Assembly: GCA_036785375.1 (NCBI GenBank)
Contig: JAWMAR010000081.1
Location: 3,658,001 to 3,722,000, forward strand
Reading direction: 5' to 3'
Length of the DNA: 64,000 nucleotides
Origin: Leucoraja ocellata
Taxonomy: Eukaryota
Every line of letters starts with the position of its first letter. Within the stretch, counting starts at the first letter, position 1. Below the pieces are notes generated by a model. The model was not told the origin of the DNA, made no database searches, and saw only the letters and a list, made by a program, of their open reading frames with translations. Positions 370-59,194 of the stretch are shown here, piece by piece. Position numbers and translations under genes: made by a program.

Positions 370-1200
370 TGTTCCGTCGTTCTGCTCTTGCTCCCTCTCT
401 CCCCAGACGATACTAGGACAGTATTCCCCTGGTCTTCATCTTTCACCCCACCAGCCTCCCTATCCAACACATCGTTCGACATTTCTGTCACCAACATAAT
501 CCCAACACTAATCGCAACTTTCCATCCCCACTGCTTTCTGCCTTCTGTAACTCATTGGTCCACTTATTCCTTCCCATCCAAACCACCCTGTCCCCAGGTA
601 CTTTCCCCTGCAACACCTGTCTTTACACCTCCTCCCTTGACTCCAGCCAAGAACCCCAACAGTCCTTCGAGGTGAGACAGAGGTTCACATGCACCTCCTC
701 TAACTTCAGCCAGTGTTCCTGTTGTGGGCTCCTGTGCATTGGCAGGACAAAGCGTAGTTTTGGCGATTGTTTCACTGAACACCTATGTTTGGTCCACCAA
801 GATCTACTGGGTCTCTTGGTTGCTAACCTTAATAACCCCCCCTTCCCATTCCCACACTAACCTTGTTTAAGAAGGAACTGCAGATGCTGGAGAATCGAAG
901 GTACACAAAAAAGCTGGAGAAACTCAGTGGGTGCAGCAGCATCTATGGAGCGAAGGAAATAGGCAACGTTTCGGGCCGAAACCCTTCCTCAGACTGATCG
1001 GGGGCGGGGACAAAAACTTTGTCCCCGCCCCCGATCACTAACCCACCCACACTAACCTTTCTGTACTGGGCCTCCTCCATTGCCAGACTCGAGCCACATG
1101 CAAATTGGAGGAACAGCACCTTGTATTTCGTTTGGATTGCTTACGGTGGTATGAACGTTGGGTTCTCTCATTTTGGGTAACTTCTAGAAACATTCTTTTT
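370..1200 (+). mobile_element. Degraded Penelope-like element, GIY-YIG endonuclease region
   Basis: PQQSFEVRQRFTCTSSN...CCGLLCIGRTKRSFGDCFTEHL followed by KLEEQHLVFRL. Interrupted by a short insertion at 865-1045. Confidence 0.8.
865..1045 (-). mobile_element. Penelope terminal-repeat (pLTR) fragment with hammerhead-like core, inserted with a 14-bp TSD
   Basis: Flanked by cccacactaacctt at 851-864 and 1046-1059. On -: CTGAGGA-A-GGGTT-TC-GGCCC-GAAA-CGTT. Confidence 0.7.
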
Positions 1201-2489
1201 CCTTCTTTCCCTCCACCCCCCCCCACCTGCTTTCCCCCACCCCCCCCCCCCCCCCCCCCCTTCTTCCACAGTTCGTAGTGATGTATCCATCTTGGTACCA
1301 CACTGTCCCTAGACAACTTCACAACTATTAATGTTAATTAAAAAATAGAAAATTACAGCACTAGGCAGATCGGGTAGCACGAGTAGGAAGAGGAATGTTG
1401 ACTATTCGAGTCCGGGATGATGAACAGGTGACGGAGGGCAGGCCAAGGGAGAACAAACCCAAGTGTAGAGGCGAGTGGGGGATGAGTTGATGGAACCAGG
1501 TGTGGGAGGTCTACTTTCCTATTTCTCCCTTCATCCCCCCCCCCCCCCCCCCTTTCCACCCCCTCCCCCCTCATTTGCCCAAGATTGCAAATGCTTTCTC
1601 TTCCATTAAGCCCAAGGTTTTGACTCCAAACTTAAATGTCAAACATATAGTTTAAACTATATCTGATACCACTTATCTTCTGGCTTCCGTCTCCAAGTCC
1701 CTCCACCTGACCATATCTGCCCACCATTCCTCTCACCTCGCCTATCTGGAGATGCAAGATACATCAGAAGTCAAGTAGATTTTAAATAGAGGGGGGCAGA
1801 GAACATAAGGAATGTCCTTCTGTGATAGGGTGCAGCCCAGAGTTTAATTTTAGTTTCATTATTATTATTGCCACGTGTGCCAAGGTAGAGTGGAAAGCTG
1901 TGTTGTTGCGTGCTATCCAGTCAGGGAAAAGACCATAAATGTTTACAATCAAGCTGTCCACAGTGTGCAGATACGGGATAAATGGAAACGTGTTTAATGC
2001 AGACTAAAGAACATTAAAGCCTGATTAAAGGTAGTTTGAAGATCTCCAACGCAGTAGATTGATGATCAAGACCATCCAATTAATGACTACTTTGATAAAC
2101 CAAAGTGTAAAAAAAAAAGTGAAACTAATTGTGAGTACTATTTTGGGGTGAGGAGAAAATAGTTACCTGAAATTGTTAAATTAAATATTATGTTCTGATG
2201 GCAGTAAAGTGACACAAGAAAAAGGAGCAGGAATAGGCTGCCTGTTTCCTATAGTGAATCATGTAGTGCCATTTGATGTGTTTGTTGATGCTGATTCTCC
2301 TCGGGTATTGACTCCTCTTCTGTTCCACTTTCACATAGACCTTTAATTCCTCAGATTTGTCTATCCCCCTCCTTAGATGACTTGAAAGGTAGGATGCTGC
2401 TCCTGGAGCTCCATTGGTTATCATTGGAGCAAGAGTGAAGGTCAAAGATATAGCTCGGAATGGTGTTGAGTGGAGAATGAAACTATTAA

Positions 2490-2700
2490 TAGACACAAAA
2501 CGCTGGAGTAACTCAGCGGGACAGGCAGATCCCTGGAGAGAAGGAATGGAGAACTGAAGAAAGGTCAGTCTGAAGGAAGGACTCGACCCAAAACATCACC
2601 CATTCCTTCTCTCCAGAGATGCTGCCCTATACCTCTGAGTTACTCAAGCATTTGTGTCTTTCTTTGGTTTAAACCAGCATCTGCAGTTCCTTCCTACACA
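2490..2700. mobile_element. Fold-back Penelope pLTR fragment
   Basis: agacacaaaa-gctggagtaactcag...ctggagagaaggaatgg followed by its reverse complement, with a degenerate ribozyme core between the arms. Confidence 0.7.
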
Positions 2701-3284
2701 TGAAAACTATGCATAGTTTTTCTCATTTTGCTATAGTTTAGACATCTTTGGTACTATTTGTGCCAAAGACCATGGCTTTTAAGGCAAATCATGAACATAC
2801 CATCATAAAAATAAGCTGCACGGTATTCGATGGAACAATTGTCTCTTGAATACTTTAGCTGCTGAGCCATGAGATTTTATCCCTTTTAAACTCATGATCT
2901 GTGCATGCATGTGCAATTACTTCTGTAACTTGCAAAAGATAATGTAGAAACAAGGCACCGCAGATGCTGGTTTACACAAAAGGAAATTGATGTCGAAAAT
3001 TGCGAAAATTATTTAAAAAAAACAGATTGTAATATGTTTAACCCAAGAGCTTGTGCACTGGGAAAACACGATGGGAAAATAGGCCAACAAAGTGGAACTT
3101 AAGGATGTTAGGGGAGGCAATAAATAGATTTATCAGGTGTAAATTCACTATGTAACAGGAGGCAGGAGATTAAAATATGATTTTTCTTTTGGAATAGATC
3201 TAGTAAACAAAAAGCACTTTATATTTTGCCTGTTACAGTGCTATTGTCCCTGTAAAGAAGATAAATGTCTGCGAGATAATTATC

Positions 3285-4410
3285 TCAACTCCACTTCTTC
3301 CCACCCTGCTTCCTGCAGAGACTATCCCCATCTCCCAATTCCTCTGTCTACACCGCATCTGCGCCAAAGATAATGTGTTCCATACCACGACATCCGAGAT
3401 ATCCTCATTCTTTAGGGAACCGGGTTCCCCTCCCATCATAGATGAGACCCTCACTCATGTCTCCACGGTACCCTGCAGCTCCGCCTTTGCTCCCCCTCCC
3501 CCTAGTGGCAACAGAGAAAGAGTCCCCCAAGTCCTTAACTTTTACCACATCAGCTATCGCATGCAACACATAATCCTCCAACATTTTCACCACCTCCAAT
3601 GGAATCCCGACATTAGTCACATCTTTCCATCTCCACCCCCCTCCGCCCTCTGCAGAGACCATTCTCTCGGCAACTCCCTGGTTAACTCATCCCTTCCCCT
3701 GCAACCGCAGGAGATGCAACACCTGTCGCTATACCTCCTTCCTCGACTGTGTCCAGGGACCCCAACAGTCCTTTCAGGTTAGGCAGAGGTTCACTTGCAC
3801 CTCCTCCAACCTCAACTACTGTATCCGTTGTTCAAGGTGTGGACTCTTTACATCGGCTAGACAAAACGCAGACTGAGCGATCGTTTCGCAGAACACCTTC
3901 GTTCAGACCGCCTGGACCTACCTGATTTCCCAGTTGCAAAACACTTTAGTTCTTCTTCTCATTCCCACACTGACCTTTCTGTCCTAGGTCTCCTCCATTG
4001 TTAGAGTGAGGCTAAATGCAAATTGGAGGAACAGCACCTCATATTTCGCTTGAGCAGCTTACAGCCCATGAATATTGGTATGAATATTGATTTCTCTAAC
4101 TTCAAATAACCACGGCATTCCCTCTCTCCATCTACCCCACCCCCCCCCCCCCCCCCCCACCTAAGTTGCACCAGCTTCCCGTTTTCTAACACAGCTAACA
4201 ATGGCCCGTTTCCTTTATCATTGTTAGTTTTTTCATTTATTGTTTATCTCTCTACATCGTCTATATCTCTCTCTCTCCCCCTGACTAGTTTGAAGAAGGG
4301 TATCGTCCCGAAACATCACCCATTCCTTCTCTCCTGAGATGCTGCCTGTTACACCAGCTTTTTGTGTCTATCTTCGGTTTAAACCAGCATCTGCAATTCC
4401 ATCGTACATA
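3285..4410 (+). mobile_element. Penelope-like element 3' part (RT C-terminus, GIY-YIG, pLTR), degraded
   Basis: IPISQFLCLHRICA, ERVPQVLNFYHIS, QVRQRFTCTSSNLNYCIRCSRCGL and KLEEQHLIFRL, with frameshifts. Ends in the pLTR sequence. Confidence 0.85.
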
Positions 4411-4455
4411 AATGGGTACAAGCATTGTCTATCTTTTTTTTTGTTAAATCTACAG

Positions 4456-4609
4456 CAGAAAGGGTGTTGCTTTTATGGATGGTGCATGAGTGTCATGTTT
4501 CTGCATCACTCATGTTGCAAACCTTATTTCCTAGTGGTGTTTACGGTAGAAATTTCGCCTTGCTTCTGCCGTTTGCTGGAGTGAAGAAGACAGAGGATGT
4601 TGAAGCAAC
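4456..4609 (+). other. Candidate upstream ST3GAL6 exon, possibly ending in a short coding start (ATG 4597, MLKQ + 1 nt)
   Basis: T-rich tract plus TACAG acceptor at 4455 and donor AAC|GTAAGT at 4610. No homology support, and upstream ATGs are present. Confidence 0.25.
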
Positions 4610-5446
4610 GTAAGTCGTCTAAGTAGCCCACATCTTTTTTTTAAATGATTAAAATCATTGAATACGCATGTCTTCGGAGAAGTAATATTCTAGATTTTCC
4701 AATCGGAGCATGCAACAACATTGTAGAATGAATGCTAATTGCATGGAAGTGTGTAAAGGAAAAGGACTGATTCTTGATCGACCATTCAAGAGCAATGGAC
4801 TTGCTATTGACTGGGAATTGATTCAAAAATAATACACCAAAATGCGATAATCTGGCACATTGGGACTTTGGTTCCATCAGCAAAGTTTCCACATATTGAA
4901 TGCAATTTCTATTCATTTCATAGAAACATAGAAAATAGGTCCCAGCGGAGGCCATTTGGCCGTTTGAGCCAGCACCACCATTCATTGTGATCATGGCTGA
5001 TTCATTGTGATCATTTCCTGACGCATTTTAATTTAACATAATTTCCCCTGAGTGAGATACTGAACTATCAGGATTTCCAAATAGTTCTAATTATTAATTA
5101 TACTGTAGCCTGAGTAATGGAGTGATTGAAAATAAACCATCCTTTAAGCTTTACCTTAAAAAAAACCAGAAGTTATAAAACCCTTTGCTTATTTCCAAAT
5201 ATTAGATTAAGAAAAGGATGATTTTTGAGCTAAAGATTGAGAGCTTTGTATCTAAGATGGGGAATCTCTATCTTCAGGTTTATATAAGAGGTGTAGCTTT
5301 AACAGCAACCAGAAGTCATAATTTCTTAATCAGTAATAACCTCTGGCCTATAAGGGTAAAAAGCAAAGAAATGGTTGGATTGACAAAATATATCAGAAAT
5401 AAGGAACTAAGCAGAATGTAGTAGGATTGAAAACAAATAATGAAAA

Positions 5447-6440
5447 TTAGTTTAGTTTTGAGATACAGCGTAGAAACGGGCCCTTCGGCCCACCAAATCC
5501 ATGCCGACCAGTGATCTCCGCACACTAACACTATCCCACACGCACTAGGGAGAATTTACAATTATAACAAGCCAATTAACCTACAAACCTGTACGTCTTT
5601 GTAATGTGAGATGAATCAAGATCACGGGGAGAATGTACAAACTCTGTAGAGGCAATGGTTCAATGGTCCTTTATTGTCACGTGTACCATTTAAGGTACAG
5701 TCAAATTTGATTTGCCTTACAGTCATACTAGAAAAAAGCACCAAGATGCACAATTACATAAAAGTTAACATAAACATCCACTAATGCGGCTCCCTCACAT
5801 TCCTCACTGTGATGGAAGGCAATAAAGTCTTATCTTATTTCCTTCTTATTCTCCCACGGATGGGGCAGTTGAACCATCTGCAGTTGGGGCAATCGAAGCT
5901 CCCACAGCCGGCGATCGAAACTCCCGAGATCGGGGAGATCGAAGCTCCTGCAGTTGGAGCTCCCGAAGTCTGTCCCTAACCAAGGGACCACAAGCTCCAC
6001 AGTTAAGTCCGCAGGCTCCCGCCATTGGAGCTCCCAAGGTCGATCCCTGACAAAGGGACCGCCAGCTCCACAATGTTGAGTCCGCAGGCTCCAGCGGTTG
6101 GAGCTCCCAAAGTCGATCGCCAGCAAGAGGCCATCAGCTCCTCGTTGTTAGGCCGCAGCGCGGACGGAGATATGATACGGAAAAAAATCGTATCTCCATC
6201 GAGCATTTTTAAAAGTTTCCCCCAACCCCACCCCCCACATAATACAAAGCTAAAGATGTACGAAAACATACATTTAACAACATACTAAAAACAACAAAGA
6301 AAGAAAAGGACAAGACAGACTGTTGGCGAAGCTGCCATTGTATGGCGCCACCTGGTGGACAAGCACCCGTAGTCAGGATCGAACTCTGGTCCCTGGTGCT
6401 GCGAGGTAGCAACTCTACTGCTGCATCACCGTGCCGTCCC
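5447..6440 (-). mobile_element. HE1/V-SINE copy split by a nested insertion (about 5655-6360)
   Basis: The (ctaaa)n tail and CR1-like 3' end lie at 5447-5650. The tRNA-like head (gggacggcacggtgatgcagcagtagagttgct..., gttcgatcc B box) lies at 6361-6440. Confidence 0.8.
5655..6360 (-). mobile_element. GC-rich non-autonomous retroposon (gagctcc-rich family)
   Basis: 3' end on - is gtgacaataaa plus a short repeat tail. Internal ggagctcc subrepeats. Related copies at about 10460-11180, 30700-31451 and 63530-64000. Confidence 0.7.
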
Positions 6441-6894
6441 TTGGGCCACACTTTTTATTTTAAAGCCATGTTTTGTATATAATTTACCAATGGGACCTGG
6501 CCTGCTTAAACCTGTGGTTTCAGAAGAGAGAATCTGCAAAAAATGTGATTTGTACGGCATTTTGAAGCGCCTTCTTTCGGGAGCTGCCACTTGATGCGAT
6601 CTGTGCAAGGAAGTGAAGACTATCTGTTACCATTGGCCAAGGTTAACTATGGACTGGATAATGAATGGGGTATCGCGTTGTACTTGCTATACCTAGCAGC
6701 AGGAATTGATACTTAGCAACCAAACATTGGAAACCCTGTTGTGTGGGACATTGATATTGGATTCTTCCCTTACCCCATAAACATAGCAGCAATCTAGAGC
6801 TTTCCTGGTGTACATTGTGCTTTGAAGAAATTGTCATATAGTTGTAGCTTGCTAACATCCATGAAAAGTACCAAAAATCTGTACTTGAGTTTTT

Positions 6895-7140
6895 GGTTTT
6901 AGAGACCCAGTGTGCCTCCCCGATGCACTAGTTCGATTCTACGCACTGGAGACAATTTACAGAAGTCAATTAACTTAAATACCTGCACATATACGGAATG
7001 CAGGAGGGAACCAGGGCACTCAGAGAAAACCCTTGAGGTGAGAGGGAGAAAGTACAATCTCTGTGCAGGCAGCACCCGAATCAAACCCAGGCCTCTGGCG
7101 CAAAGGCAGCAATTCTACCGCTGTGCCAGTGTCACCCCTG
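6895..7140 (-). mobile_element. HE1/V-SINE, diverged
   Basis: Similar to the other SINE copies in the window (V-domain and tRNA-like head). Confidence 0.65.
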
Positions 7141-8167
7141 TATTTCTGTCGCTTGGCTTTTATGATTAATTCTCTAAATATAGGTACTAGGCCTATCTGT
7201 TATTCACTTTCTTTTCTCATTCACACTCATACACAGCTGGAACTACAACTCCAATCTTGTTTCCATATAATTTCCTTTAATTTTCTTCGCTTTCTATCTT
7301 TTCCAAACTTGGCTTGTTCTTTAAATGTCATTCTTTGTTTCTACTAACTGGATTTTTTTATTTCCCTTGCCCATCTGCTTTCATTCAACTAGAGATTATG
7401 CTGACCTTAATTTTATGATACTAAATCTTCATCTTATGAAAATGAGCTTTTGCTGTTTCTTCTTTTAAAAACCTGTTTTGTAATTGAAATCCTTATACAC
7501 ACCAAGCTATTCATTAAAATATATTTTCAATATTGCTTCGCAGTGAAATTACACTTGGAAACGAAAATCTTGATTTTTATCTTTGCCATTGTGAAGGTTC
7601 TCGGCATTGTGTATAGGAATTGCCATAAACTTTGTCCAATTTAATACCAATAGCAGAATTTAATATCATCTTTTGTAAATATCTGCATATCCTTTCATAG
7701 CAACAGAATTTTAATTCCAGGTGACGGTGCACGAATGGCAAGATATTTTCAAGCCATGAGTTGTGTGAATTGGAAGGGAATGTGTAGATAATGGCGGTCC
7801 TGTTTACTCTTAATCTGTGTTTTCTATTCTTGAGGCTACTTCATATAATAGGAAATGTTTGATCCTTTGCATTCATGCTTATTTGTGTACCAATAAATTA
7901 CAGTCAGTGTGGTCTTCCAGCAGTTACTGCTAACCCATAAGGGGGAAAAAAGTGCCTTGATTTAACGTGTTGTTGAACGTGAGGGGAATGTCATTCCCAT
8001 CAACAGTCCTTTCCTTGAAAGGCATCACATGGAATGGGGGAGGGGGAGGAGGAAGGAGAGGGTGGAGTAGAAGCATTACATAAAGTATCTGAAGTTTTTG
8101 ACATGGGGCAAACTCAATCTCATTTTCTAAGCTAAATGAATGCTTCTGACGTTTAAACTATTATAGA

Positions 8168-8328
8168 CAAAAATGCTGGAGAAACTCAGCGGGCGAGGCA
8201 GCAATAGATCAAAGGTATAAGTGAAGTTTCGGGTCGCGACCTTTCTTCAGAAGAACTCATCCTCTGAGTTTCTCCAGCATTTTTGTCTACCTTTGATTTT
8301 TCCAGCATCTGTAGTTCTTTCTTAATCA
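8168..8328. mobile_element. Fold-back pLTR insertion with hammerhead-like core and 16-bp TSD
   Basis: Direct repeat tttaaactattataga at 8152-8167 and 8329-8344. Core on - at 8250-8223: CTGAAGA-A-AGGTC-GC-GACCC-GAAA-CTTC. Confidence 0.75.
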
Positions 8329-8433
8329 TTTAAACTATTATAGATTTATTTTAGTTTTAAAATGTACGTTTTTTTAAAATAAACCAAAGTTTAATTATAT
8401 CTAGTCTGCACTACTCTCCTTCATTGAAACAAT

Positions 8434-9722
8434 GTGCCTGGAAGGTCATGTTTGACTAATCTTCTTGAATTTTTTGAAGAGGTTACTCGGGAAATTGATG
8501 AGGGTAAAGCAGTGGATGTTGTATATATGGACTTCAGTAAGGCCTTTGACAAGGTTCCTCATGGAAGGTTGGTTAAGAAGGTTCAATGGTTGGGTATTAA
8601 TGGTGGAGTAGCAAGATGGATTCAACAGTGGCTGAATGGGAGATGCCAGAGAGTAATGGTGGATGGTTGTTTGTCAGGTTGGAGGCCAGTGACTAGTGGG
8701 GTGCCACAGGGATCTGTGTTGGGTCCACTGTTGTTTGTCATGTACATCAATGATCTGGATGATGGTGTGGTAAATTGGATTAGTAAGTATGCAGATGATA
8801 CTAAGATAGGAGAGGTTGTGGATAATGAAGTAGATTTTCAAAGTCTACAGAGAGATTTATGCCAGTTGGAAGAGTGGACTGAAAGATGGCAGATGGAGTT
8901 TAATGTTGATAAGTGTGAGGTGCTACATCTTGGCAGGACAAATCAAAATAGGACGTACATGGTAAATGGTAGGGAATTGAAGAATGCGGGTGAACAGAGG
9001 GATCTGGGAATAACTGTGCACAGTTCCCTGAAAGTGGAATCTCATGTAGATAGGGTGGTAAAGAAAGCTTTTGGTGTGCTGGCCTTTATAAATCAGAGCA
9101 TTGAGTATTGAAGTTGGGATGTAATGTTAAAATTGTACAAGGCATTGGTGAGGCCAATTCTGGAGTTTGGGGTACAATTTTGGTCGCCTAATTATAGGAA
9201 GGATGTCAACAAAATAGAGAGAGTACAGAGGAGATTTACTAGAATGGTGCCTGGGTTTCAGCAACTAAGTTACAGAGAAAGGTTGAACAAGTTGGGTCTT
9301 TATTCTTTGGAGCGCAGAAGGTTAAGGGGGGACTTGATAGAGTTCTTTAAAATTATGAAAGGGATAGACAGAGTTGACGTGGATAAGCTTTTCCCACTGA
9401 GAGGAGGGAAGATGCAAACAAGGGGACATGACTTGAGAATTAAGGGACAGAAGTTTAGGGGTAACATGAAGGGGAACTTCTTTACTCAGAGAGTGGTGGC
9501 TATGTGGAATGAGCTTCCAGTGAAGGTGGTGGAGGCAGGTTCGTTTTTATCATTTAAAAATAAATTGGATAGTTATATGGACGAGAAAGGAATGGAGGGT
9601 TATGGTCTGAGCGCAGGTATATGGGACTAGGGGAGAATACGTGTTCGGCACGGACTAGAAGGGTCGAGATGGCCTGTTTCCGTGCTGTAATTGTTATATG
9701 GTTATATATATATATATATATA
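8434..9722 (+). mobile_element. 5'-truncated young CR1 LINE (RT domain to 3' end)
   Basis: SCLTNLLEFF, YMDFSKAFDKVPH, GVPQGSVLGP, KYADD. One in-frame TGA at 9109-9111. gttatatg/(TA)n tail. Confidence 0.95.
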
Positions 9723-10348: not shown

Positions 10349-10459
10349 GTAATATTGAGAGACATGGATCACTGTTATAGTTCTGTCATTTGTTTTGAGA
10401 GGGAAAAACAAGATTAGTACAGGCCACAGATTGTCAACTTTGACAATTATACAATTATT

Positions 10460-12889: not shown

Positions 12890-13085
12890 TGAAAGAAAGT
12901 GCTGGAGTAACTCTGCGGGTCAGGCAGCATTCCTGGAGAACATGGATAGGTGATGTTTCAGATCTAGTCCTTATTCAGACTGCTGAGTTAATCATTCTGT
13001 GTTTTTCTTTTTTGTACAGCTGAGTTACTCCGGCACTTTGTCTTTTTTGTAAGCCTACAACTGCAGTTCCTTGTTTCTACACCAG
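12890..13085. mobile_element. Degraded fold-back pLTR fragment immediately 5' of an ST3GAL6 exon
   Basis: gctggagtaactc...gggtcaggcagcat followed by the inverted ctgagttactcc...ctgcagttccttg. Confidence 0.65.
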
Positions 13086-15702: not shown

Positions 15703-17264
15703 GTGAGTTTGCTAAAATTGTCCATTTAAAAGAATAATATTTCATCTCTGATCCAACTGGTTTCCATCATAGGGCTCCCTTACTTATTTGCATGAACATA
15801 GCCATGGGTCGTAAATACTGTGACACACAAAAATCAGATTTTTCTTGCGTTAATATGATGCCCTTTTTTTACTTCTAGCCTCGTTGCCACGTGAACTGTT
15901 TTTTTTCCTTCTTGTAACCCCCCCACCCAGAGTTCTTGATCCCTGTGGTGATGTTGTGAATGGTCCTTAATTACTTTCCCCATTCCTTTTAAGTTCTGCT
16001 AAAATCGTCCTGCCACCTCATTCCAACATTCGAATCGGAAGAATCGCAGACAACATTTTAGAAGAGTCTAGATAAGCGCTTAAATCATCCAGGCTGGAAG
16101 ATGGGATTACTGTGAATGGATGTCTACTGTTTGATGTGGATATTGTGGCTGAATGGCCTGTTTTCATGCTCTTCAATACAAACTTCCACCTCTACAACCT
16201 CTTCTCCATCGGACCCTTAAATATTCTGTTGATTTGAAGAGCTGTGATCATTTCTCATGGGATTAACCTATTTCTACCTATCCCGATGGTGCAGTGACCC
16301 TAATTATAGCACCTTCATGTTGTTTTCTATTTGTTGCACAGTGTTAACAACATTTTCTCCATCTCTCTATATTAATTCAATCTTCCAGCCATCAACAGAG
16401 TTGGCTGCACCATCCTTCAGCAATGCTTTCCAGCTCAATAGCATTGCTTTCCCATTCTGTACTCCTTGACTCCCTTGTAGTTTACATGTCTGTCAGACTG
16501 TGCTTTGGATGTATACAATGACTCCACCTCCACAGTTTTCTGGGGTAAAGAACTCCAAAGATTGTGAATCTCAAACTATAAATTCCTTCTCACCTCCATC
16601 TGAAATTGGTAGCACTTTACTTTGAAACCATGCTGCTTTATCTTAGATACTGCAGAGGAATAACATCCTTTTCTGCATCCATCTTGTCAGTCCCCTTCAG
16701 AATCTGCAGCAGAAAAGTGCAGGTCATGCAGCATATGTGGATGCTGAGGGGTCCCAACCCAAACATCACCTGTCCATTCCCTCCACAGATGCTACCTGAC
16801 CCACTGAGTTCCTCCAGCACTTTCCGTTAAAGCGCCTAATGACTTGCTGTAACTGCATGCTAACTTTATATTTTGAGTCCCGTAGATGCCTTTAGCATCA
16901 TAATTTGTAGTCTTGCGTTCTCTGCCTTCAACAATGAATATCCTCAAATGTTTTCCATTGTTTAGCATCTGCCAACTTCTTGCTCACTATGCTAACCCAT
17001 CTTTCCATCGTTACCAGATTTGCCTATGATAAACTCTTTCCGTTCACTCAACTCATTAATATAGATGGGGTCAAGGCAAGAGCGAGCGTTCACCTCGCGG
17101 CCCTGTTTCCACCACTCCTTCCACCACCACGCACAAGAAGCGACAAGACAGACGCCATTGTGCAGATGCCGAGAAGTGTGGTCATCTCTGGCTGAACAAC
17201 TTCTAATCTTGTGTGTGGACTCGATAAGAAGAAGATTAATATAGATGATAAATATTGGAGGGTC

Positions 17265-17964: not shown

Positions 17965-18755
17965 TGCGTTTAGTTTAGAGATACAGTGCGGAAACGGGCC
18001 CTTCGGCCCACTGAGTCCGCACCGACCAATGATCCTGACATATTAACACTGTCCTACACACTCTAGGGACAAGCCAATTAACCTACAAACCTCTACGTCT
18101 TTGGAGTGTGGGAGGAAACCAAAGATCTCGGAGTCACGGAGAGAACGTACAAACTCTGTACAGACAGCCCCCTCAACATCTGGCTAGGTTCCTGCATGCC
18201 TCTGCCCTAATATAATTCAAAACTCTTCTGGCAAATTGAATCCCAGTCCTTTGATCATTCTTTGAAGGTCTGAAGAAGGGTCCCGACCCAAAACGCCACC
18301 TGTCCATTTTCTCTAGAGATGCTGCCTGACCCGCTGAGTTACCCCAGCATTTTCTAACAATTGACGGACTACTCACTGGGAATAGATACCAATCCACAAT
18401 TTTGTTGCTACTGAAATACTCAACAAATCATATAAAAAATGCGGACTGTACGCAGCACTGAGTAACTTAACATCTATCTTTTTTTTGTATTTGCTTGTTC
18501 AAAATGTGGTTTGTTTAGTTTAGAGGTATAGCCCTTCAGCCCATTGAGTCTGCGCCAACCAATGATCACCCGTGCACTAGTTCTATTCTACACACTGGGT
18601 TCAATTAACCTACCAACATGTACGTCTTTGGAATGTGGGAGGAAACTGGAACACCTGGAGGAAACCCATACAATCACGGGGAGAATGTACAAACTCCGTA
18701 CAAACAGCGCCCATAGTCTGGCACTATAAGGCAGCAACTCTACCGCTGTGCCACC
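17965..18755 (-). mobile_element. Two HE1/V-SINE copies flanking a + strand pLTR fragment (18265-18355)
   Basis: tttagtttagag tails at about 17968 and 18513, V-domain sequence, and ctgaagaagggtcccgacccaaaac. Confidence 0.75.
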
Positions 18756-33609: not shown

Positions 33610-33705
33610 GAAAGAAGGGTCTCGACCCGAAACGTCACCCATTCCTTCACTCCATAGATGCTGCCTCGCCCACTAAGTTTCTCCCGCATTTTTGTCTACC
33701 TCCAG
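33610..33705 (+). mobile_element. pLTR fragment with partial hammerhead core
   Basis: aagaagggtctcgacccgaaacgtcacc: stem II and GAAA-CGUC are intact, CUGA is missing. Confidence 0.7.
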
Positions 33706-34789: not shown

Positions 34790-34995
34790 GTGTTCTGTTC
34801 TCACCCTGTGACCTAAGTGAGTTTTCTCTGAGATCTTCGGTTTCCTCCCACACTCCTAAGACGTGCACGTTTGTAGGTTAACTGGCTTGGTAAAAATTGT
34901 CCCCAGTGGGTGTAAGATGGTGGTAATATGCGGGGATCTCTGTTCGGCGTGGGCCGAAGGGCCTGTTTCCATGCTGTATCTCTAAACTAAACCTG
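34790..34995 (+). mobile_element. HE1/V-SINE 3' part
   Basis: V-domain plus gggccgaagggcctgtttccatgctgtatctctaaactaaac tail. Confidence 0.8.
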
Positions 34996-35215
34996 AAATG
35001 TTGACTCTTCCTCCCTCCACAGATGCTGCCTGATGAGCTGAGTACTTCTAACACGGTCTGTTACTAGTTTTATTAACAACTGCATTTTTGCTGTTAACAT
35101 TACCTTCTGTCTTTACAGTAAATCAGTGACTGAATCCGGAGTTTCTTACTGCCTGTCACACACAAAAGAAAAAATCATAATATAACTTTAATCCTCAATT
35201 TATTACAGATCTTAC

Positions 35216-41339: not shown

Positions 41340-41525
41340 AACAAGGAACTGAAGATGCTGATTTACACAAAAAGACACAAAGTGCTGGAGTAACTCAGCA
41401 GGGCAGATGGCATCCCTGGAGAACATGCATCGGTGACGTTTTGGATCGATCTGCCCTAAAACATCACCTATCCATGTTCTCCAGTAATGCTGCCTGACCC
41501 GCTGCGTTATTCTACCACGTTATGT
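41340..41525. mobile_element. Fold-back pLTR fragment, ribozyme core deleted
   Basis: acaaggaactg-agatgctg...gtgacgttt then the inverted aaacatcacctatccatgttctccag... Confidence 0.7.
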
Positions 41526-42215
41526 TTCAGCGGTATATTTTTGACTTGTCAGCTGAATTTTTCACACCTTGGGATACCTGTTGGATATAAGGAAACAAGA
41601 GCTGCATCAATGAGGTCTTTATATCGCTGCTTGGGGGCTTGAAGGAACAGGAGTAATTCCTAAACGGTCCACAAGCAACCCCATATACTCTACAAACAAT
41701 CTGTCCACATCCCCCCCCCCCCCCCCCCACCCCCAATACCCACCCCCTCGTGAATCTCTCCAACCATCACTTAGGAAAAATATCCCAACCTTTTCTCATG
41801 TAGTTTGTGCTAATTAGAGGACACATTCCACAACATCATGCACCGATTTACAGTGATTTCAATTTCATAGAGCTACTGTTATCGTCATAGAGCTGTCATT
41901 ATTGCTTGAGCTTTGGAAAACATGACATCTCGGTCAAGCAACTTAAAATTTCCAGATTTCACTGGTCTCAATACAAAATCCAGGCCTATAAACTTATTCT
42001 AGGTATCTGATGAGGAATTTATAGTCATTCAACATTTTCCATGTGCTTTTGTCACATGAAATTTTCCTTTGCATCAATTGCTTATTTTTAAACGAACATG
42101 GTATGAGGTGCTCATGGCTGCATTACAAATAGTTGACAGGGTACATTTCAGTTTGCATTTATGGGGTGAATTGCAAAAAACATTACTTGTCCCTCCACTA
42201 CAAAGAAACTACAAA

Positions 42216-46070: not shown

Positions 46071-46624
46071 AGAGGGGAAAAAATATGGAATTATTGTAGA
46101 CGGGCAATTATTAGAGCCATGGGGTTGTACAGCATAGTAACAAGCTCTTTGGCCTGCCACGTCTATGTCAACGAGTTTGTTTCTATACTCTCTGGCTCTA
46201 ATAATTGCTCAAGTGAAATAGTTAACACTTGACAAATAAATATTTAGCCTTCATACAATCTGTAATCATATCTATTGAAGCATCCACAATTGTAAGTAAC
46301 ATTCAGATTGATCATTTTTCATCAATTACCACGCTGAAACATTAACTGTGTTTCTCTCTCCACAGATACTGCCCAATCCTGTGGAGTAGTTACAACATTT
46401 TCTAGTTATATTTCAGATTTCCAACATCTACAGTTTGTTGCTATTTAGCTGCAGACAAGCAGATGCTGCTTTAAGTTCTTTGTATTACAAAATTGAGAAT
46501 GAAATACAGTTAAAGCCAACAAATCTCGTGTTATCAATTTAGAGGAAGCTGTTCATGGGGGAAGTAAATTGGCTCTATCCATTTTAACTATTTGAAACAT
46601 GTTTTTCAAATGCTATTCTTATGA

Positions 46625-48490: not shown

Positions 48491-48519
48491 TCTTGCTACC
48501 CACTCAAACACCAGAAGTG

Positions 48520-48895
48520 ACAAGGAACTGCAGATGCTGGAAAATCGAAGGGAGACAGAAATGCTGGAGAAACTCAGAGGGTGAGGCAGCATCTATGGAA
48601 CAAAGGAAATAGGCATGATCTTCTATCTCACCTAGAAGGACTTTCAGGGTCCCTGGATGGAAGCAAGGGAGGAGGTATAGGGAAAGGTGATACGTCTCTT
48701 GCGGTTGCAGAGGAAAGTACCTGGGGAGGAGGTGATTTGTGTGGGAAGGGATGGGTGAACTAAGGGGTTGTGAAGGAAGTGGGCTGCAGAAGGCTGGAGA
48801 TGGGAAGATGTGTGGTGGCAGGATCACATTGGAGGTAGATGTCGGAAGATGATGTGTTGGATACAGAGGCCGGTGGGATGCAAGATGACCAGGCC
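48520..48895 (-). mobile_element. Penelope-like fragments (coding remnant plus pLTR)
   Basis: Similar on - to 500-700 and 3550-3790, and to the pLTR sequence. Confidence 0.7.
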
Positions 48896-49374: not shown

Positions 49375-49395
49375 CTACAGAATAAATGGATATCA

Positions 49396-52040: not shown

Positions 52041-52330
52041 CTTAACGCACGAAAGTACATCCAGAATAAATATTTCCAGCATAAATTCCATACTAAAGAG
52101 GCAAGCCAGCACCGTCTGCTTCTGAACAAGCATAATATGCAGCTTCCTCTGTGGACAGATCGGTATGTAAGATCTGTTGAGTTTTATACCTTTTTGCAGT
52201 GGTTTTAGTCCTTGTATTTTAAAACTCTTTTTTTGATCCAAGGTATTTAAAGGCCAAACTAAACAAACAGCCATGTGGTAACAGGGAGACACGGATGGCA
52301 GCTTTGTTTTTATAGGCCCGTCCCCTGCAT
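52041..52330 (-). promoter_or_regulatory. Candidate COL8A1 promoter and first exon
   Basis: On -: GGGGACGGGCC then TATAAAAA (52314-52307), a second TATAAAA (about 52188-52182), and donor AAG|gtaatg at 52040, all in non-repeat sequence. Confidence 0.35.
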
Positions 52331-52437
52331 GGTTTATGTGTGTTTGTTCGAGTACAGAGGCTGAGATTTTGAACTCAAAATAAGCTCAGTGGAAGGAATC
52401 CAGACCACCTACCCAACCACAACTCTTGTCTAATGCT

Positions 52438-52648
52438 GTAGGAAGGAACAGCAGATGCTGGTTTAAACCGAAGAGAGACACAAAAAAGCTGGAGTAACTC
52501 AGCGGGTCAGGCAGCATCTCTGGAGAGAAGGAATGGGTGACGTTCAATGGGTTGAGATCCTTCTTCAGATTGAAGAAAGGTCTCGACCCATTCCTTCTCT
52601 CCAGAGATGCTGCCTGACCTGCTGAGTTACTCCAGCTTTTTGTGTCTA
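52438..52648. mobile_element. Fold-back pLTR insertion with 14-bp TSD
   Basis: tcttgtctaatgct at 52424-52437 and 52649-52662. Inverted arms of about 60 bp around two damaged ribozyme cores. Confidence 0.8.
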
Positions 52649-52999
52649 TCTTGTCTAATGCTACTTTACTAGGACTAAGCATTGCCAAACTTTCAAAATT
52701 AACCAGCTGAATGTCTTAAGATTGTGATGTTGTTTTATTTAAGTTGATCACTATCAGAAATGAATTACTAAACAAGTATTTGTGATGGGTGTCAGTTTAG
52801 GTTAGAAGACAGGCTACTGGTCATGAAAATCAATGTTTGGGGAAGATTACAAATGAGAATTGTTACAAGAAACTGAGCTTCCCATGCACAAATGTTTTTT
52901 TACACTTCGACATTGTCCTACAAGTCTGTGGACTGTTTGGAAGCATCTTTACTTTTTTCTTTGCCTTTATGGATATATCAAATCCATAGGGTCTAAAGG

Positions 53000-53285
53000 G
53001 TTTTAGATTTTTAGATTTTAGATTTTTAGTTTAGAGGTACAACGCGGAAACAGGCCTTTCGACCCACTTCACCGACCAGCGATCCCCGCACATTAACACT
53101 ATCCTACACGCACTGGGGACAATTTACACCTCCATCAAGCCAATTAACCTACAAACCTGTACGCCTTTGGAGTGTGAAAGAACTGAAGATCTCAGAGAAA
53201 ACCCACGCTGTCACGGGGAGAACGTACAAATTCCGTACAGACAGCACCCGTAGTCGGGATCGAACCCGGGTCTCCAGCGCTGCCT
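53000..53285 (-). mobile_element. HE1/V-SINE
   Basis: (ttttaga)n tail, V-domain and gggttcgatccc B box. Confidence 0.85.
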
Positions 53286-54324
53286 ATCCTGCCTATAAGA
53301 TCCAGTGTTGAAGAGTCCATTGGAAGCCCATAGAGTCTACAGAAGATACCAACCTCCACTTCTCAAGATGCCACGAAATTGCTTTGAATTACATTATTCT
53401 TGTTCATAGAGTGCGTAAACTGCATAGTATATTGAAGAAGCTCATCAGCCTAGGCTGATTTAAAGAGCGATTACCCTCTTCATAATGTCGATAAGACACA
53501 TTAGCCTGCCCATCGATGTCTGGAAGATTCATTCTTTATTCTGTCCACTGCGTTTCTGGTCCCCCCCAGACGTTACCTTGATCTACTGACCTCATGACAT
53601 GTTACCAGTTAATCAAGATGGTGAGTCATATATGTAATACTGCAGAGAGACTTTTTCTATTCATTCGCTTCTTAGGATCTGGAATCAGTGGCTCAGCCTG
53701 AACCAGAAAGACACAAAAATGGAGGTATGTTAAGCCAGAACTAATTGCCCAACCCTAAATTGTCTTTGAACCGAGTAGCCTGTTAGACTAGTGAAGAGTT
53801 AAACTCATTGTTGGAGGTAGACTTGCGTCACAGAGCTGACTGGTTGGCAAAGGATGGCAAATTTCCAGCGGGGATCAGTAAAACATGAGGTTTTCTGGGA
53901 AATCCAGAGGTTTTATAGTCATCGTTACCAATGACTAGTTTTTTTTAAATTTGAATGTAAATTCCACAACCGCGAGGTATAATTTGAACTCGGTGCTACT
54001 CTCCAGTTACTTAACCACTGTACCACCAGCAACCACAGACCAGTGCATATCGTCTTACAGCAGGAATCACAACCCATTCTGCCTGCTAACCAACCAGTCT
54101 CTCTGCCAATGAAAGGAACAGCAGCCCTCAGTATTTTCAGACTGGGCTCCTTCCAGGCTGCATCAAGTGACTCCTGTTTAGTCAACCTACAATCCAGACC
54201 CGCATCAAACAAGTCACTGATACTCTCCTTGATTATCAGAAGGAATAGGAACTGTACGCATGATGTACCAAAAACATGTGTGTTAGCTGAACCTGAAGCC
54301 TAAAACCATCACATGACATACAGT

Positions 54325-54610
54325 GTAAGAAAGAACTGCAGATGCCAGTTTAAATCAAAGGTAGACACAACATGCTGGAGTAACTCAGCGGGTGAGGCAG
54401 CACCTCTGGAAAGACGGAATGGCCAACGTTTCGGGTTGAGACCTTCTTCAGACTGATCCTTCAAAGATGTACAGATTTGTAGTTTAATCGGCTTTATTTA
54501 AATTGTCCTTGGTGTAGGATAATGTTAGTATACGGGGTGATCACTGATCGGCACGGACTCAATGGCCGAAGGGCCTGTTTCGGCGCTATATCTCTAAAGT
54601 CTAAAGTAAA
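54325..54610. mobile_element. pLTR fragment (-) with hammerhead-like core, fused to a SINE 3' end (+)
   Basis: Core on - at 54451-54425: CTGAAGA-AGGTCTCAACCC-GAAA-CGTT. SINE tail ctctaaagtctaaag. Confidence 0.7.
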
Positions 54611-56874
54611 GTGCAAACTTTTAAATGCGACGTGGCATATACGTAAAGTAGCAAGCGGAGGAATAGGTTAGCTGCAATTGCTACATTGGAGCCATTCAAA
54701 ATCAATAATTCATGTCAATATTCAATGTAATCAAACAGACTAAATAGTCACAAATAACACTGCAAAAGAATGCAACAAATATTCCAAGTGCAGCCTCACC
54801 AACGTCTTGTACAGCTGTACCATAATGTCCCAATTTCTGTACTTTATTTTCTGACTGATGAAGGCCAACATACCAAAGCCATTTAATGATCTGCCATTTA
54901 TTGAGATTATGACGGTTCTATGAACCAACTAAATATTTTGGTCTATTCTCCACAATTCTTTTGTAACTTATGTAAGGAAAAATCTATCAATCACCACTTT
55001 AAGATTAACAATAGACTAAGCATCAGTAGCTGTTTGCAAAGGAGTGTTCCCAACTTAAATAGCTTGTCACGTGTAAAAGTTATTCATAACTACCTTTGCA
55101 AAAGGACTGGTTCTGATTTTTTGACACTCCTTCTGATCCTACATTGCCCCAATCAGCAAACAAGTTTATATGTGTGTACACTACGGGTTGCTCCCGACAT
55201 CTAGTAAACTTTGACCAAATCACTTTGAAATTCCATGAATCGAAACCTTAGATTATGTAATATTTTCTCGTAATATTAAACTTTGACTTCACTGATGAGA
55301 AATTGAACCCATGTGAAGCAGTTTTACTTTAAACATGATGATGTGGAGTGTATAAATCATGTTTTGAAATCTTGCACACATTTCCTGTTGAAGTCATACC
55401 CATCAGGAAATTGGACCAGGCACGTCATTTTGCAATTTACCCCAGTGCAAGTTTATTTTCCCTGTTACATTTTATGAATATGATTACATCATCAATGTGC
55501 ATGGGTCATTTTAATCAATTATGACAGAAACTGGATCTACAATGTCATGTGTTATGACTAAGGTTCGAGGGATCTATAAATTAGTCAGTTGAACTCAAAG
55601 TTTTAGATTACGAGAAATTGATCTGTGGACCCAGTGACCACCATCTACTCCAGCCGTTTCTGCCTGACCCGCTGAGTTACTCCAGCATTCATTGTCTATC
55701 TTCATGAGTTATGACTGTTGGAAATAACTCATCAATGGATGCATCATGCAAAACTACACACAAATTAAAATGTGCACCCTCAAGGATAGCATTTTAAATA
55801 TATATATGTATGCACTGTCATTTTCATTAAGCAATTAAAAAAAATCATTGCCTGTAGCCATTTGTAAGGATAGAGGGATCCGTGAATTAGTGAGTTTATT
55901 CAATTGATCTCTTGATCTGTGGACCCAGCGACCACAATAATTGCTAAATCCTTGATGCTTTCCTTAACCACAGGGGACCATTGCACCCGATCTATATTGT
56001 TGGAAAAGCACTCTGCTGGAAGATGCGCATTTTTATCCCTTCTCCCTCCCACCTGGTCTCTCCACAAAGTCTGCAATACACCCTTTAACATTCTCCATCA
56101 CATCCATGGATATCATGGAGACATCTCTTTAAAAGTGCTGACCACTTTCACCTGGTGAATGAGTGAATGATGCAACAGCTACATGTTTTGGAGCAGTTGC
56201 TGACTGAAATATACGTCAGCTGTTACTTCTCTTAAATACCTGGGAGGGGGGTGGGGGGTGGGGGGTGCGAATCATGGTAAATTCTTAAAATCTCCAAATG
56301 GTGCTGGGTTTTTTTAAATTGTGCCATCAGTGTTATTTGCAAACCATGTAGTAAACCAACAATATTAAAGTCCAATTTCTAGATACAGACATCATCTTAG
56401 TACGTCCACACTACACCTCCGCTAAAGGCCAATAAAACCAATCAAATGTATGTGGTGTCCTGATACCTCTCAGTACTTCAGGTGTAGTTGAGCCAAGGGT
56501 TTGCATACCTGGTGTAGGCAAAGTCATTCTCCTTTGTACTCTGGTAAAGGAGCCTTTCTTAGTTATTTTCGATACCCGTCAGTGGTATTAAGTAATGAAC
56601 ACTATTGACTCTTTAACTGACATGTTCATGATCACAACCGTTGCTGGACCCTGCATTAATGAAGTACACCTCGCTTTGGATGCAAATACATTTCTGAGTC
56701 AAGTGTTTCAAAGAACTAAAACTAAAAAGAATTTGGTCTGATCTTCACAAAAGTGAAAACCTTTTCTGTGCCATTCAAAGGATAACCTCAAATTTACTTT
56801 TAGTTTATAGTTTGGTGCAGATTTCACATTTGAGTGCTTGCATTTGTGGAATGTTGTTTGGCTTTTGACTGAAC

Positions 56875-57575
56875 CATAGAAACATAGAAAAATAGGTGCA
56901 GGAGTAGGTGATTCGGCCCTTCGAGCCAGCTGATCATCCAAAATTAGTACCCCGTTCCAGCTTTTCCCCCATATCCCTTGATTCCCTTAGCCCCAAGAGC
57001 TAAATCTAACTCTCTCTTGACTAATCGCACCTACCAGCGCCCACATCCCTCTAAGCCATTCATATCCAGGAAAGGAGGTGTTACAAGCCGAACTCAACAA
57101 TGAATCACGGAAAAACATAGCAGAGTCATATAGTGATACTGTGTGGAAACAGGCCCTTCGGCCAACTTGTTCACACCGGCCAACAGTGTCCCAGCTGCAC
57201 TAGTCCCACTTGTCTGCGCTTGGTCCATACCCCTCCAACCCTGTCCTATCCATGTACCTGTCTGTTTCTTAAACGATAGGATAGTCCCAGCCTCAACTAC
57301 GTCCTCTGGCAGCTTGTTCCATGCACCCACCACCCTTTGTGTGAAAAAGTTACCCCTCGGATTCCTATTAAATCTTTTCCCCTTCACCTTGAATCTATGT
57401 CCTCTGGTTCTTGATTCCCCTACTCTGGGAAAGAGACTCTGTGCATCAACCCGATCTATTCCTCTCATGATTTTGTACACTTCTATACGATCACCCCTCA
57501 CCCTCCTGCGCTCTATGGAATAGAAACCCACCCTACTCAACCTCTTCCTATAGCTCCCTATAGCTCACACCCTCT
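56875..57575 (-). mobile_element. Two CR1 3' fragments
   Basis: ERRRVRGDRIEVYKIMRG...FFTQRVVGAWNKLP, catagaaa tail. Confidence 0.88.
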
Positions 57576-57793
57576 TGAGATGGAGTTCAGTTGGGCATTC
57601 ATATCTGTGCCAGCACTTTGAAAGCGTAAATCAATTTGTCCCACATTTTACACCCAGCCTGGTAAGTTTTTCCTTATATTAATGAATTTCCTTTTGAAGT
57701 TATTATTTTGTCCAAATCACTGTGAGAAAAGAAATGGAGGCAAGAATATCTTGTCCAATCTCCTGTGCAAGCAGACACTCTTAATATCGTCTT

Positions 57794-57978
57794 TTAAGAA
57801 GGAACTGCAGATGCTGGAAAATCAAAGGTACACAAAAATGCTGGAGAAACTCAGCGGGTGCAGCAGCATCTATGGAGCGAAGGAAATAGGCAACGTTTCG
57901 GCACCCGAAACATTGCTTATTTACTTCGCTCCATAGATGCTGCTGCACCCGCTAAGTTTCTCCAGCATTTTTGTGTAC
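57794..57978. mobile_element. Fold-back pLTR insertion with 14-bp TSD
   Basis: cttaatatcgtctt at 57780-57793 and 57979-57992. Near-perfect inverted arms of about 75 bp with a tiny loop. Confidence 0.82.
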
Positions 57979-58490
57979 CTTAATATCGTCTTCTTTGACT
58001 GATCTTATGGTCACTCCACCTAACTATAACTTTGCTTTAATACCATTTAATCCCCGTGATTCAACTTGGAATTAGAATAAACAGCTCATGAAAGAGTACC
58101 ATAATTACGGTGTTTGCTTTTTGCAACTGAGGCTTGGCTTTAAATCTGGTTAATTTTGCAGGTAATTAATGGTGTTTATTCCATTTTAGGAGGTCAGTTG
58201 CATATCATAAAAGGACATGATGGATAATTTGCAAAATCCTAGCTTGGCCAATTGCAAAATTCACATTGTTGGGTGTTCTTCCAAGGTATAATCCAATTCT
58301 AAATTGGATTTAGAATTTTCCTACCAGAAACTAATCTGTTCAGAATCTAAAATAATTAAAAAAGTGAAAGTACTTTTTGGAGACTTCAAAAAACACTAAA
58401 TCATTTGATAATGACAAGAATTAAGAAAGGAAAAAAAATGTATGCAAGAACATAACGGTAAAAAAATTGCACATCATTCTATTTTCATTG

Positions 58491-58583
58491 TCTGAAGAAG
58501 GGTCTAGACCTGTAACGTCACCCATTCCTTCTCTTCAGAGATGCTGCCTGTCCTGCTGAGTTACTCCAGCTTTTTGTGTCTAT
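58491..58583 (+). mobile_element. pLTR fragment with 15-bp TSD
   Basis: attctattttcattg at 58476-58490 and 58584-58598. Begins at tctgaagaagggtctagacc. Confidence 0.8.
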
Positions 58584-59194
58584 ATTCTATTTTCATTGAT
58601 GTAACAAGACAATGGTGACTGGTATGGTGATCAAGATGAAGATGGTTATGAAAACGAAGTGACCTACTTTGGATAAAATGCTATATAATGACAGAATTTG
58701 TACTACCTAATAACGTATCAGATTGCAGTGGAATACTAAGGATTGCTATTGAAGCATTTGAAGTGTAAGCCAATCTTTCCAGTTACTGAAGGATGAAGAA
58801 TAAAAACAGATCCAACTAGTACAAATCCAAAAGAGAAGTGGGAAAATTAGTGAAAGAAAACCCTACGGCAACAATCTTTATTGCAGAGGCAACTCAGAAT
58901 GGAGGTGGGGTTGGGTTAGTGGTAAATTCCGATACTGAACCCATTGTTGATAGAAAAGTTACCAATGATAACTGCAAGGCAAAGTAGCAAAACTAGACCT
59001 TGATGATGATGGGGTGAAATGTACCAAGTTTATTAGGAAGAATAACAATAATAATAAGCAGTTACAAAAGGTGAAACCAAAGGAGCAATAACATGCTGGC
59101 ACCCTTAGATAGGTGGATGATGCAAGCTGAGAGGTAGGACTGAGGATCAGAAGGAAACTCACAGAAAATATTTGAAAACATATGGTTTTAAAAT

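Follow-up and report, generated by a model that had tools for sequence, protein, structure and literature searches.

Short terminal-repeat insertions as probable products of a Penelope-like element's own reverse transcription

The short repeats analyzed here are probably short products, run-off or twin-primed, of their parent Penelope-like element's (PLE's) own target-primed reverse transcription, and not a separate mobile family. The sharp ends of these stubs likely record the copying mode of the parent element. The short copies derive from the 133-nt terminal repeat (pLTR, or module) of a putatively Neptune-type PLE, and their insertion ends are not set by hammerhead cleavage.

Copies of the repeat in the window

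A profile search with the repeat through the window, the whole 64,000-nt stretch of DNA under analysis, returned 19 insertion units comprising 25 arms, while the same profile gave no match in a reversed 1-Mb control. The dozen or more copies of one short repeat described in the initial annotation are thus real. Its five flanking direct repeats are likewise all exact (14, 16, 14, 14 and 15 bp), and the repeat does terminate a Penelope ORF remnant, with a module at 4288-4408 after the frameshifted remnant at ~3273-4106. What had been overlooked is that six of the 19 units are head-to-head pairs, each combining a long arm with a short one; three of the five TSD-flanked copies (8152, 52424 and 57780) are such pairs. 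The units, together with the hammerhead motif inside the first of them, are, in window coordinates:

851..1059, minus: young single-arm insertion; full module 995-864, long 3′ end; 14-bp TSD (851-864, 1046-1059)
963..994, minus: sole intact minimal hammerhead motif of the window, from a descriptor scan; CUGAGGA, 4-bp stem II, GAAA-CG-UU, 2-bp helix I
2484..2699: head-to-head pair; short arm minus 2551-2484, long arm plus 2567-2699; clean TSD not found
2949..2986, minus: weak tail fragment (E 0.0095)
3273..4408, plus: putatively Neptune-type PLE, 5′-truncated and frameshifted; RT thumb, Cys linker, GIY-YIG to ~4106; pyrimidine-rich UTR; module 4288-4408
8152..8344: head-to-head pair; short arm minus, long arm plus; 16-bp TSD (8152-8167, 8329-8344)
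12892..13074: older head-to-head pair; short arm and long arm; TSD not found
16742..16827, plus: old single arm; short 3′ end
18268..18355, plus: single arm from module position 2; short 3′ end
33612..33705, plus: single arm; module positions 7-101
34990..35054, plus: old fragment; module positions 19-84
41341..41526: older head-to-head pair; long arm minus, short arm plus
46334..46441, plus: old single arm; module positions 22-128
48520..48614, minus: single arm; module positions 32-128
52424..52662: head-to-head pair; long arm minus, short arm plus; 14-bp TSD (52424-52437, 52649-52662)
54323..54454, minus: single full module; positions 1-133
55656..55704, plus: fragment; module positions 52-100
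57780..57992: young head-to-head pair with its joint in the stem II region; long arm minus, short arm plus; 14-bp TSD (57780-57793, 57979-57992)
58476..58598, plus: true solo module, position 2-3 to short 3′ end; 15-bp TSD (58476-58490, 58584-58598)
62034..62129, minus: old single arm; module positions 4-121

The copy at 851, nested in an older PLE endonuclease remnant, includes ~20 nt of upstream UTR that pairs with an inverted copy of itself to form a snap-back hairpin (996-1037). As for the proposal that the module had been inserted on its own, like a retrozyme or SINE, insertion as short units stands, with TSDs far above decoy rates, but the likeness is unsupported.

TSDs of 13-16 bp flank 33 of 47 young insertions, and eight long copies have TSDs of ~11-16 bp by eye. 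The target motif is weak and symmetric, at 3.65 bits compared with a control mean of 1.79 and maximum of 2.23. Apparent TSDs at L047, L111, L123 and L134 are tandem-array overlaps and were discarded as evidence. No empty site was found among the joints listed in contigs of four read runs (15 listed; 169 more). For 14 of the 16 window sites, a look-alike stretch on C116 has a length within 4 bp of that in the window; of the remaining two, 33600 is longer and 48510 is mis-mapped.

Module sequence accounts for ~4.6% of 1 Mb sampled (~500 arms per Mb), and the stubs are therefore a sizeable part of the genome. Older module copies also contain a derived 66-nt tandem repeat, with 23,048 junctions and no catalytic core.

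The parent element

Intact parent copies are present in the same genome as a 3946-bp unit, 98-100% identical and arranged in tandem or partial tandem; the search for them gave 150 scored matches, many with open frames of >1000 aa. The single ORF has 1233 codons, with a module both directly before and directly after it. Pfam places RVT_1 (E 1.9e-6) and, C-terminally, a GIY-YIG domain (E 0.013) in the protein, both below curated cut-offs, and a Cx4CxxC motif was read directly immediately before the GIY-YIG domain. No PDB relative of the ORF was found. The parent is an EN+ PLE, combining an RT plus GIY-YIG ORF, the Cys motif and pLTR architecture. The clade name Neptune is a provisional assignment from the Cx2-5CxxC motif between RT and EN (PMC8557442). 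The family also shows pLTRs from partial tandems, inverted 5′ copies and an optional one-sided tail. The UTR of the parent looks intron-like; spliced, UTR-less ORF-module junctions were found in 0 of 207 arms. In D. virilis, an intron ends at helix I (PMC4209133).

Known Neptune-clade EN+ PLEs (PMC8557442; PMC3846280) are similar in their RT with C-terminal GIY-YIG, Cx4CxxC linker, partial tandems, TSDs, inverted pLTR copy and one-sided tail (~35 nt here, 30-40 bp there). In contrast, insertions here are mostly module-only with a sharp 5′ stop at the hammerhead edge, and their density is very high, at 427 units per Mb sampled. TSDs are ~14 bp, compared with 8-10 bp in rotifer PLE cases in the available text of the source.

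Insertion ends and the hammerhead motif

The youngest-variant set holds 77 arms, and 42 of them, non-palindromic, provided the 5′ termination rates. In 26 of the 77, the 5′ end falls within 8 nt (module -2 to +6) at the hammerhead 5′ edge. Termination among the 42 occurs at 0.056/nt over this interval (14 ends) and at 0.0008-0.0022/nt in four other bins, which for single arms is a ~25-60-fold excess over background (Poisson P about 1e-15). Decay debris, left by random 5′ truncation of full-length elements, would agree with most copies being old (family median divergence 5-22%) with broken cores, and with the 20 young arms that end inside the module; it is very hard to reconcile with such an excess in one 8-nt window and with TSDs directly flanking the stubs, and we consider it highly improbable. 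The initial annotation had set its proposal against ends distributed like random truncations, and the 5′ ends of short copies are indeed non-random.

The 3′ ends are similarly confined. Those of the 77 young arms fall at 96-102 (46 arms), at 128-140 (30) and at 112 (1), and 356 single arms comprise 155 short, 144 long and 57 other 3′ ends. Intact copies end at 97-109 or 133; long and full-length copies share both 3′ ends (~97, ~133) and the ~14-bp TSD with short copies. The 5′ stop is different: 0 of 11 upstream-pLTR passages of intact copies stop at +1/+2, compared with 26 of 57 young arms reaching that point. Thus, RNA starting at +2 is apparently not the usual full-length template. A cap-G signature is too weak to use: of 14 non-A cases, 8 have G ahead of position 2.

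A sharp 5′ end at +1/+2 unlike that of full-length copies, together with the 46 of 77 young arms that are module-only, could also reflect a SINE-like family, in which an internal promoter drives transcription of solo modules and the PLE protein re-inserts them in trans. Precedents are the internal promoter of D. virilis Penelope (PMC2377424) and non-autonomous PLE derivatives in Chlamydomonas (PMC8557442). However, short and UTR-linked arms were inseparable in a low-power lineage test on the 1 Mb sampled (P=0.11 and 0.27), and divergence is alike for the two within each family. Three older families, represented by 122, 77 (after excluding arrays) and 36 arms, gave no near-identical pairs from different loci, and older subfamilies lack young short-only clusters. 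The youngest stubs carry a 34-nt diagnostic sequence of the intact element. Moreover, the minimal in vitro template from Anolis reaches past the start sites (PMC11167929), and solo modules lack that part. The separateness implied by the SINE comparison is therefore quite unlikely.

Retrozymes, the other proposed likeness, have a hammerhead. Family consensuses hold the core (CUGAnGA, GAAA, UH and palindromic 15.2-16.2), with UH altered in the smallest, oldest family, and a strict descriptor gave 50 matches in 1 Mb, where 244 arms span the motif, compared with none in the reversed control. In the window, where many copies had been credited with the core, a loose CTGAnGA..GAAA search matches only three module copies (992, 8250 and 54451) and the strict descriptor fits just 1 of 25 arms (992, minus). 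For this motif, at 963..994, hammerhead numbering predicts cleavage after 965. Stem II, originally given as GGGTC/GACCC, is better read as a 4-bp GGGU/RCCC helix capped by a YYCG loop. Across 23 copies, pairing is 94.5% in stem II and 82.6% in the 2-bp helix I, with no two-sided changes and not above shuffles. Rfam at E<=10 gave no hammerhead family among nine matches in the window or three on a young intact pLTR, nor any Pol III-derived head (tRNA, 7SL, 5S) in either. Rfam miRNA-family matches reflect the palindrome at 57849-57958 and were set aside. Isolated module RNA is predicted to adopt another fold, with a stem II pairing probability of <=0.02.

The motif resembles the minimal type I hammerheads of metazoan PLEs (PMC4209133) in its CUGAnGA, extra nucleotide before G10.1-C11.1, GAAA, palindromic C15.2-G16.2 and UH, and in occurring mostly singly with some opposite-strand pairs. 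It differs in a helix II of 4 bp and a helix I of only 2 bp (also 2 bp in D. virilis), with no compensatory changes seen. In four raw-read runs, possibly of a different species, the module is covered to a depth of thousands and the ORF to tens, 83-96% run on into unlike sequence, and both strands are alike in the oligo-dT runs; this pattern fits module copies embedded in other sequence. No RNA 5′-end or cleavage-end pile-up was found in these four runs, which say nothing on small or circular RNA.

For non-LTR retrozymes, tandem hammerhead units would be cut to monomers, circularized and re-inserted. Like the stubs, such elements (PMC7229834; 10.64898/2026.07.22.740005) have a pLTR origin, a type I hammerhead and long TSDs, and the genome does contain a 130-nt trimer (L123) and 88 exact-pattern head-to-tail junctions of the whole module. 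But these 88 are a genome-wide count, against ~500 arms per Mb; no window unit (0/19) is a head-to-tail tandem with a complete hammerhead, and the catalytic core is missing from the sole abundant tandem derivative. The copies, monomeric or paired head to head, have fixed rather than permuted ends, the stem II prediction is unfavorable, and the motif is minimal rather than canonical. Only 2 of 77 young 5′ ends lie near the predicted cleavage site (positions 29-35), and cleavage-defined ends were rejected. Because tandem whole-module junctions are rare and the ends ignore the cleavage site, we conclude that the stubs are not retrozymes, an origin we regard as barely credible.

Paired arms and the copying mode

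The two 3′ ends are coupled in head-to-head pairs. All 14 young pairs with both arms matched consist of a long and a short arm, as do 47 of 53 classifiable random pairs (P 2.7e-9; 18/71 unclassifiable). An inverted copy with 3.2 kb per arm (L173) follows the same pattern, its arms stopping at 807 and 809. Some arms meet at the quasi-palindrome of stem II (L229, L231) and others at TCAG-T-CTGA (L238, L240); in L207 and L228, filler follows a stop at exactly +2. Many junctions are asymmetric.

For inverted ends and one-sided tails of PLEs, the literature has proposed self-priming or endonuclease resolution. Fold-back, with the inverted arm arising from self-priming of one cDNA and endonuclease trimming leaving the one-sided tail, has been put forward for PLE palindromes (PMC3846280; PMC8557442). 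It would account for the real snap-back hairpin at 996-1037 and for the nearly identical stops of the L173 arms. It also predicts concordant arms, and arms within a pair do mostly share variants (71/74 diagnostic sites in the youngest family). Against it, asymmetric junctions are common, and 3 of 19 young pairs compared (L227, L243, L248) have arms of different variants or subfamilies, which later conversion or nesting could explain. Furthermore, single arms end at both 3′ sites, and hence both sites serve as ends without a partner arm. Fold-back is thus an unlikely source of the pairs.

If the stubs are instead products of the parent's own target-primed reverse transcription, the parent protein, likely a dimer, would nick both target strands ~14 nt apart, and reverse transcription would initiate within the pLTR RNA, using either of two internal sites (~97, ~133). 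The template RNA would begin at ~+1/+2, likely by transcription start at the initiator-like TCAGT or as a processed end. The cDNA from this template would run off after about 100 or 135 nt to leave a solo module. Where both nicked ends prime, one per site, two cDNAs would form a head-to-head pair, joining through self-complementary hammerhead sequence or filler. A Poseidon PLE offers a biochemical parallel: it nicks and extends both strands in vitro, starting at two tail-defining internal sites, is predicted to be dimeric and can dispense with hammerhead cleavage (PMC11167929).

This element, Poseidon_Ac (PAc) of Anolis, is similar to the present one in having, downstream of the hammerhead, two internal start sites that set the tail, in using both strands and in inserting without need for cleavage. 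PAc belongs to another clade, and its first ATG lies at stem II, compared with after the tail here. The genomic record here couples the two sites one per end, a coupling that the available PAc text does not report.

A more speculative picture, which we hold only tentatively, goes further. A two-headed complex would prime each end of the 14-nt stagger at its own fixed RNA site, fed by a dedicated short RNA from the hammerhead 5′ edge; the pLTR alone would have been stamped in some million times, as an order of magnitude; and the 66-nt repeat spawned by the module would home into existing copies without TSDs.

As a ribozyme or retrozyme discovery, these repeats are ordinary. The genome offers near-identical intact parents, suited to in vitro work, together with thousands of young stubs. 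From the ends of these stubs one would predict a stagger of ~14 nt, a coupled pair of start sites with each tied to one end, and RNA whose 5′ end lies at the hammerhead edge.

Module copies and their parent element

A profile HMM of the repeat found 25 module copies (arms) in the 64-kb window, grouped into 19 insertion units of which 6 are head-to-head pairs. The five direct repeats reported in the initial annotation are all exact target-site duplications (TSDs), of 14, 16, 14, 14 and 15 bp, and the repeat does terminate an ORF remnant (window 3273-4408), as had been proposed. Hammerhead cores had been ascribed to many copies; a loose core pattern is present in 3 copies, a strict descriptor matched only 1 of the 25 arms, and an Rfam search returned no match to a hammerhead model. 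Most cores in window copies are decayed. An older Penelope-like element (PLE) remnant occupies window 330-1190, with the young copy at 851 in its endonuclease region, and a LINE-like reverse transcriptase fragment, putatively CR1-type, spans window 8420-9000 and beyond. A second copy of the window region, a haplotig or duplication 98-100% identical to it, lies in the same genome (G000 C116:6634001-6714000); site 33600 is ~310 bp longer there.

When an N-terminal reverse transcriptase (RT) peptide was searched against the genome, 150 matches were scored, and many of these contain open frames longer than 1000 aa. Twelve fetched loci revealed a 3946-bp unit whose copies share 98-100% identity. 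Its stop-to-stop ORF of 1233 codons encodes RT, a Cx4CxxC linker and GIY-YIG. The parent is putatively of Neptune type, labelled by its linker motif (PMC8557442) and not by a tree.

Intact 3946-bp putative Neptune-type PLE copies
L163-L174, e.g. G000 C8:5602001-5622000: in tandem arrays

These copies carry a long proline-rich N-terminal region and are likely active or recently active. The 133-nt module adjoins the ORF start, and a second module lies 3' of a 117-nt pyrimidine-rich UTR. Because it flanks the ORF on both sides, the module is the pLTR. The UTR (L165:6044-6159 and equivalents) is intron-like, with a GT-like donor near its start and a CAG end before the hammerhead; among 207 arms, no spliced genomic junction lacking it was found. 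D. virilis Penelope has an internal promoter and an intron (PMC2377424).

Ends and pairing of the insertions

Module positions are numbered from the A of AGTCTGA, with cleavage predicted after position 31. The youngest variant has 7,020 exact matches to a 34-nt diagnostic pattern; 70 loci, most of the first 100 places listed (C1 and part of C2), yielded 79 arms. Two were dropped, one as a duplicate and one as a unit internal to a tandem, which left 77 arms in 63 insertions, including 21 inverted pairs. Their 3' ends fall at 96-102 (46 arms, short) or 128-140 (30, long), with one at 112. Their 5' ends lie inside the module at 7-62 (20 arms), at -2 to +6 (26, with a mode of 10 arms at +2) or further upstream (25), and 6 are censored. 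For 42 non-palindromic young arms, the termination rate was 0.056/nt in the peak versus 0.0008-0.0022 elsewhere (P ~1e-15). All 14 young pairs with both arms matched combined a long and a short arm. TSDs of 13-16 bp flank 33 of 47 young insertions, long copies being similar, and a weak symmetric target motif (3.65 bits at 52 sites; 40 controls, mean 1.79, maximum 2.23) was detected. Inside other repeats, young insertions of independent origin also recur at an identical sequence site (L204/L205 and L209; L220 and L243; L218 and L237), which suggests target preference. The proposal that the module is not only decay debris is supported: the feature is real and non-random.

A sample of 100 stretches of 10 kb from large contigs (C1-C101) contained 498 arms in 427 units, or 45.7 kb of module sequence, and its reversed-sequence control gave 0 profile matches. 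Extrapolated to the genome, these counts imply about one million loci or more, an estimate from large contigs of an assembly that apparently has duplicated stretches. Five sequence families have median divergences of 5-22%; UTR-linked members occur in all five (72 arms in total, detection being weaker in old families). Pairs were head-to-head in 71 cases versus 11 tail-to-tail. Of the head-to-head pairs, 18 could not be classified; the other 53 comprise 47 long+short, 4 short+short and 2 long+long, a long+short excess with P 2.7e-9. A TSD score of >=10 was found for 24 of 71 pairs and 23 of 137 solo arms, against 0.3% and 1.3% of the respective decoys, although some of the apparent duplications were tandem overlaps.

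Retrozyme-like spread and PLE insertion

Retrozymes are tandem hammerhead-unit arrays expressed as circles (PMC7229834; 10.64898/2026.07.22.740005). Whole-module tandem junctions number at least 88 genome-wide by exact-pattern search, and the nearest to such an array in the 1-Mb sample consists of three whole 130-nt modules joined head to tail at L123:8968-9355. The retrozyme- or SINE-like spread initially proposed is not supported: only 2 of 77 young 5' ends lie close to the predicted cleavage site (29-35), and short and UTR-linked arms did not separate in a low-power comparison (n=54, P=0.11; n=70, P=0.27). Among older families in the 1-Mb sample, no cluster of young copies consisted of short arms alone. 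The module is not a new ribozyme element.

Lunse and colleagues have reportedly described dimer cleavage of PLE hammerheads. Helix I of the module hammerhead has 2 bp, no two-sided covariation was found in the motif, and stem II is predicted to pair with a probability of <=0.02 in isolated RNA. The hammerhead agrees with the minimal type known from PLEs (PMC4209133); that study describes mostly single motifs and opposite-strand pairs, ascribed to truncated PLEs.

Earlier studies describe inverted pLTRs that have a TSD and carry a tail on one side only (PMC3846280, PMC8557442 and PMC8969392). The skate module ends, with their two start sites, fit the PLE reaction in PMC11167929: the protein, predicted to be dimeric, nicks and extends both target strands, two internal RNA start sites define the tail, and hammerhead cleavage is not required. 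Here, cDNA would run off at an RNA 5' end located at the hammerhead's edge; both target ends would be primed, probably by a dimeric PLE protein, and the cDNAs would join at the self-complementary hammerhead sequence or via filler. Twin priming is a term from L1 work. Arms of different variants in 3 of 19 young pairs favour two templates. Counting against this reading, stops at +1/+2 occurred in 0 of 11 upstream-pLTR passages of intact copies versus 26 of 57 young arms, arms within pairs are mostly concordant (71/74 and 66/80 diagnostic sites), and window 996-1037 holds a true fold-back. On the best reading, the module copies are stub insertions that stem from an active PLE, itself an element of known kind.

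A 66-nt tandem derivative

A 66-nt head-to-tail repeat is built from module positions 24-90 and lacks both CUGAnGA and stem II. It has 23,048 exact junction matches genome-wide and none in the 64-kb window; the junction was also seen in RNA reads.

Young 66-nt tandem repeat
C1:18.05-20.63 Mb; L111, L134, L253-L262, L279-L298: locally clustered, the first 100 listed junctions all on the plus strand of the C1 interval

Among 24 loci examined, 17 arrays start within a diverged host module beginning at position <=9, and only 1 locus has end repeats of >=10 bp. The hosts are older module copies of several families, and the arrays lie within them without a TSD. From these sequences, the repeat looks like homology-driven spread into existing module copies, and recurring composite pieces suggest copy-to-copy conversion or homing.

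We found no published description of the module family in cartilaginous fish, nor a publication on coupling of two start sites, in a search of the literature, largely open papers. The stub insertions are useful as a record of the PLE insertion mechanism, and the 66-nt repeat may be the more unusual phenomenon.
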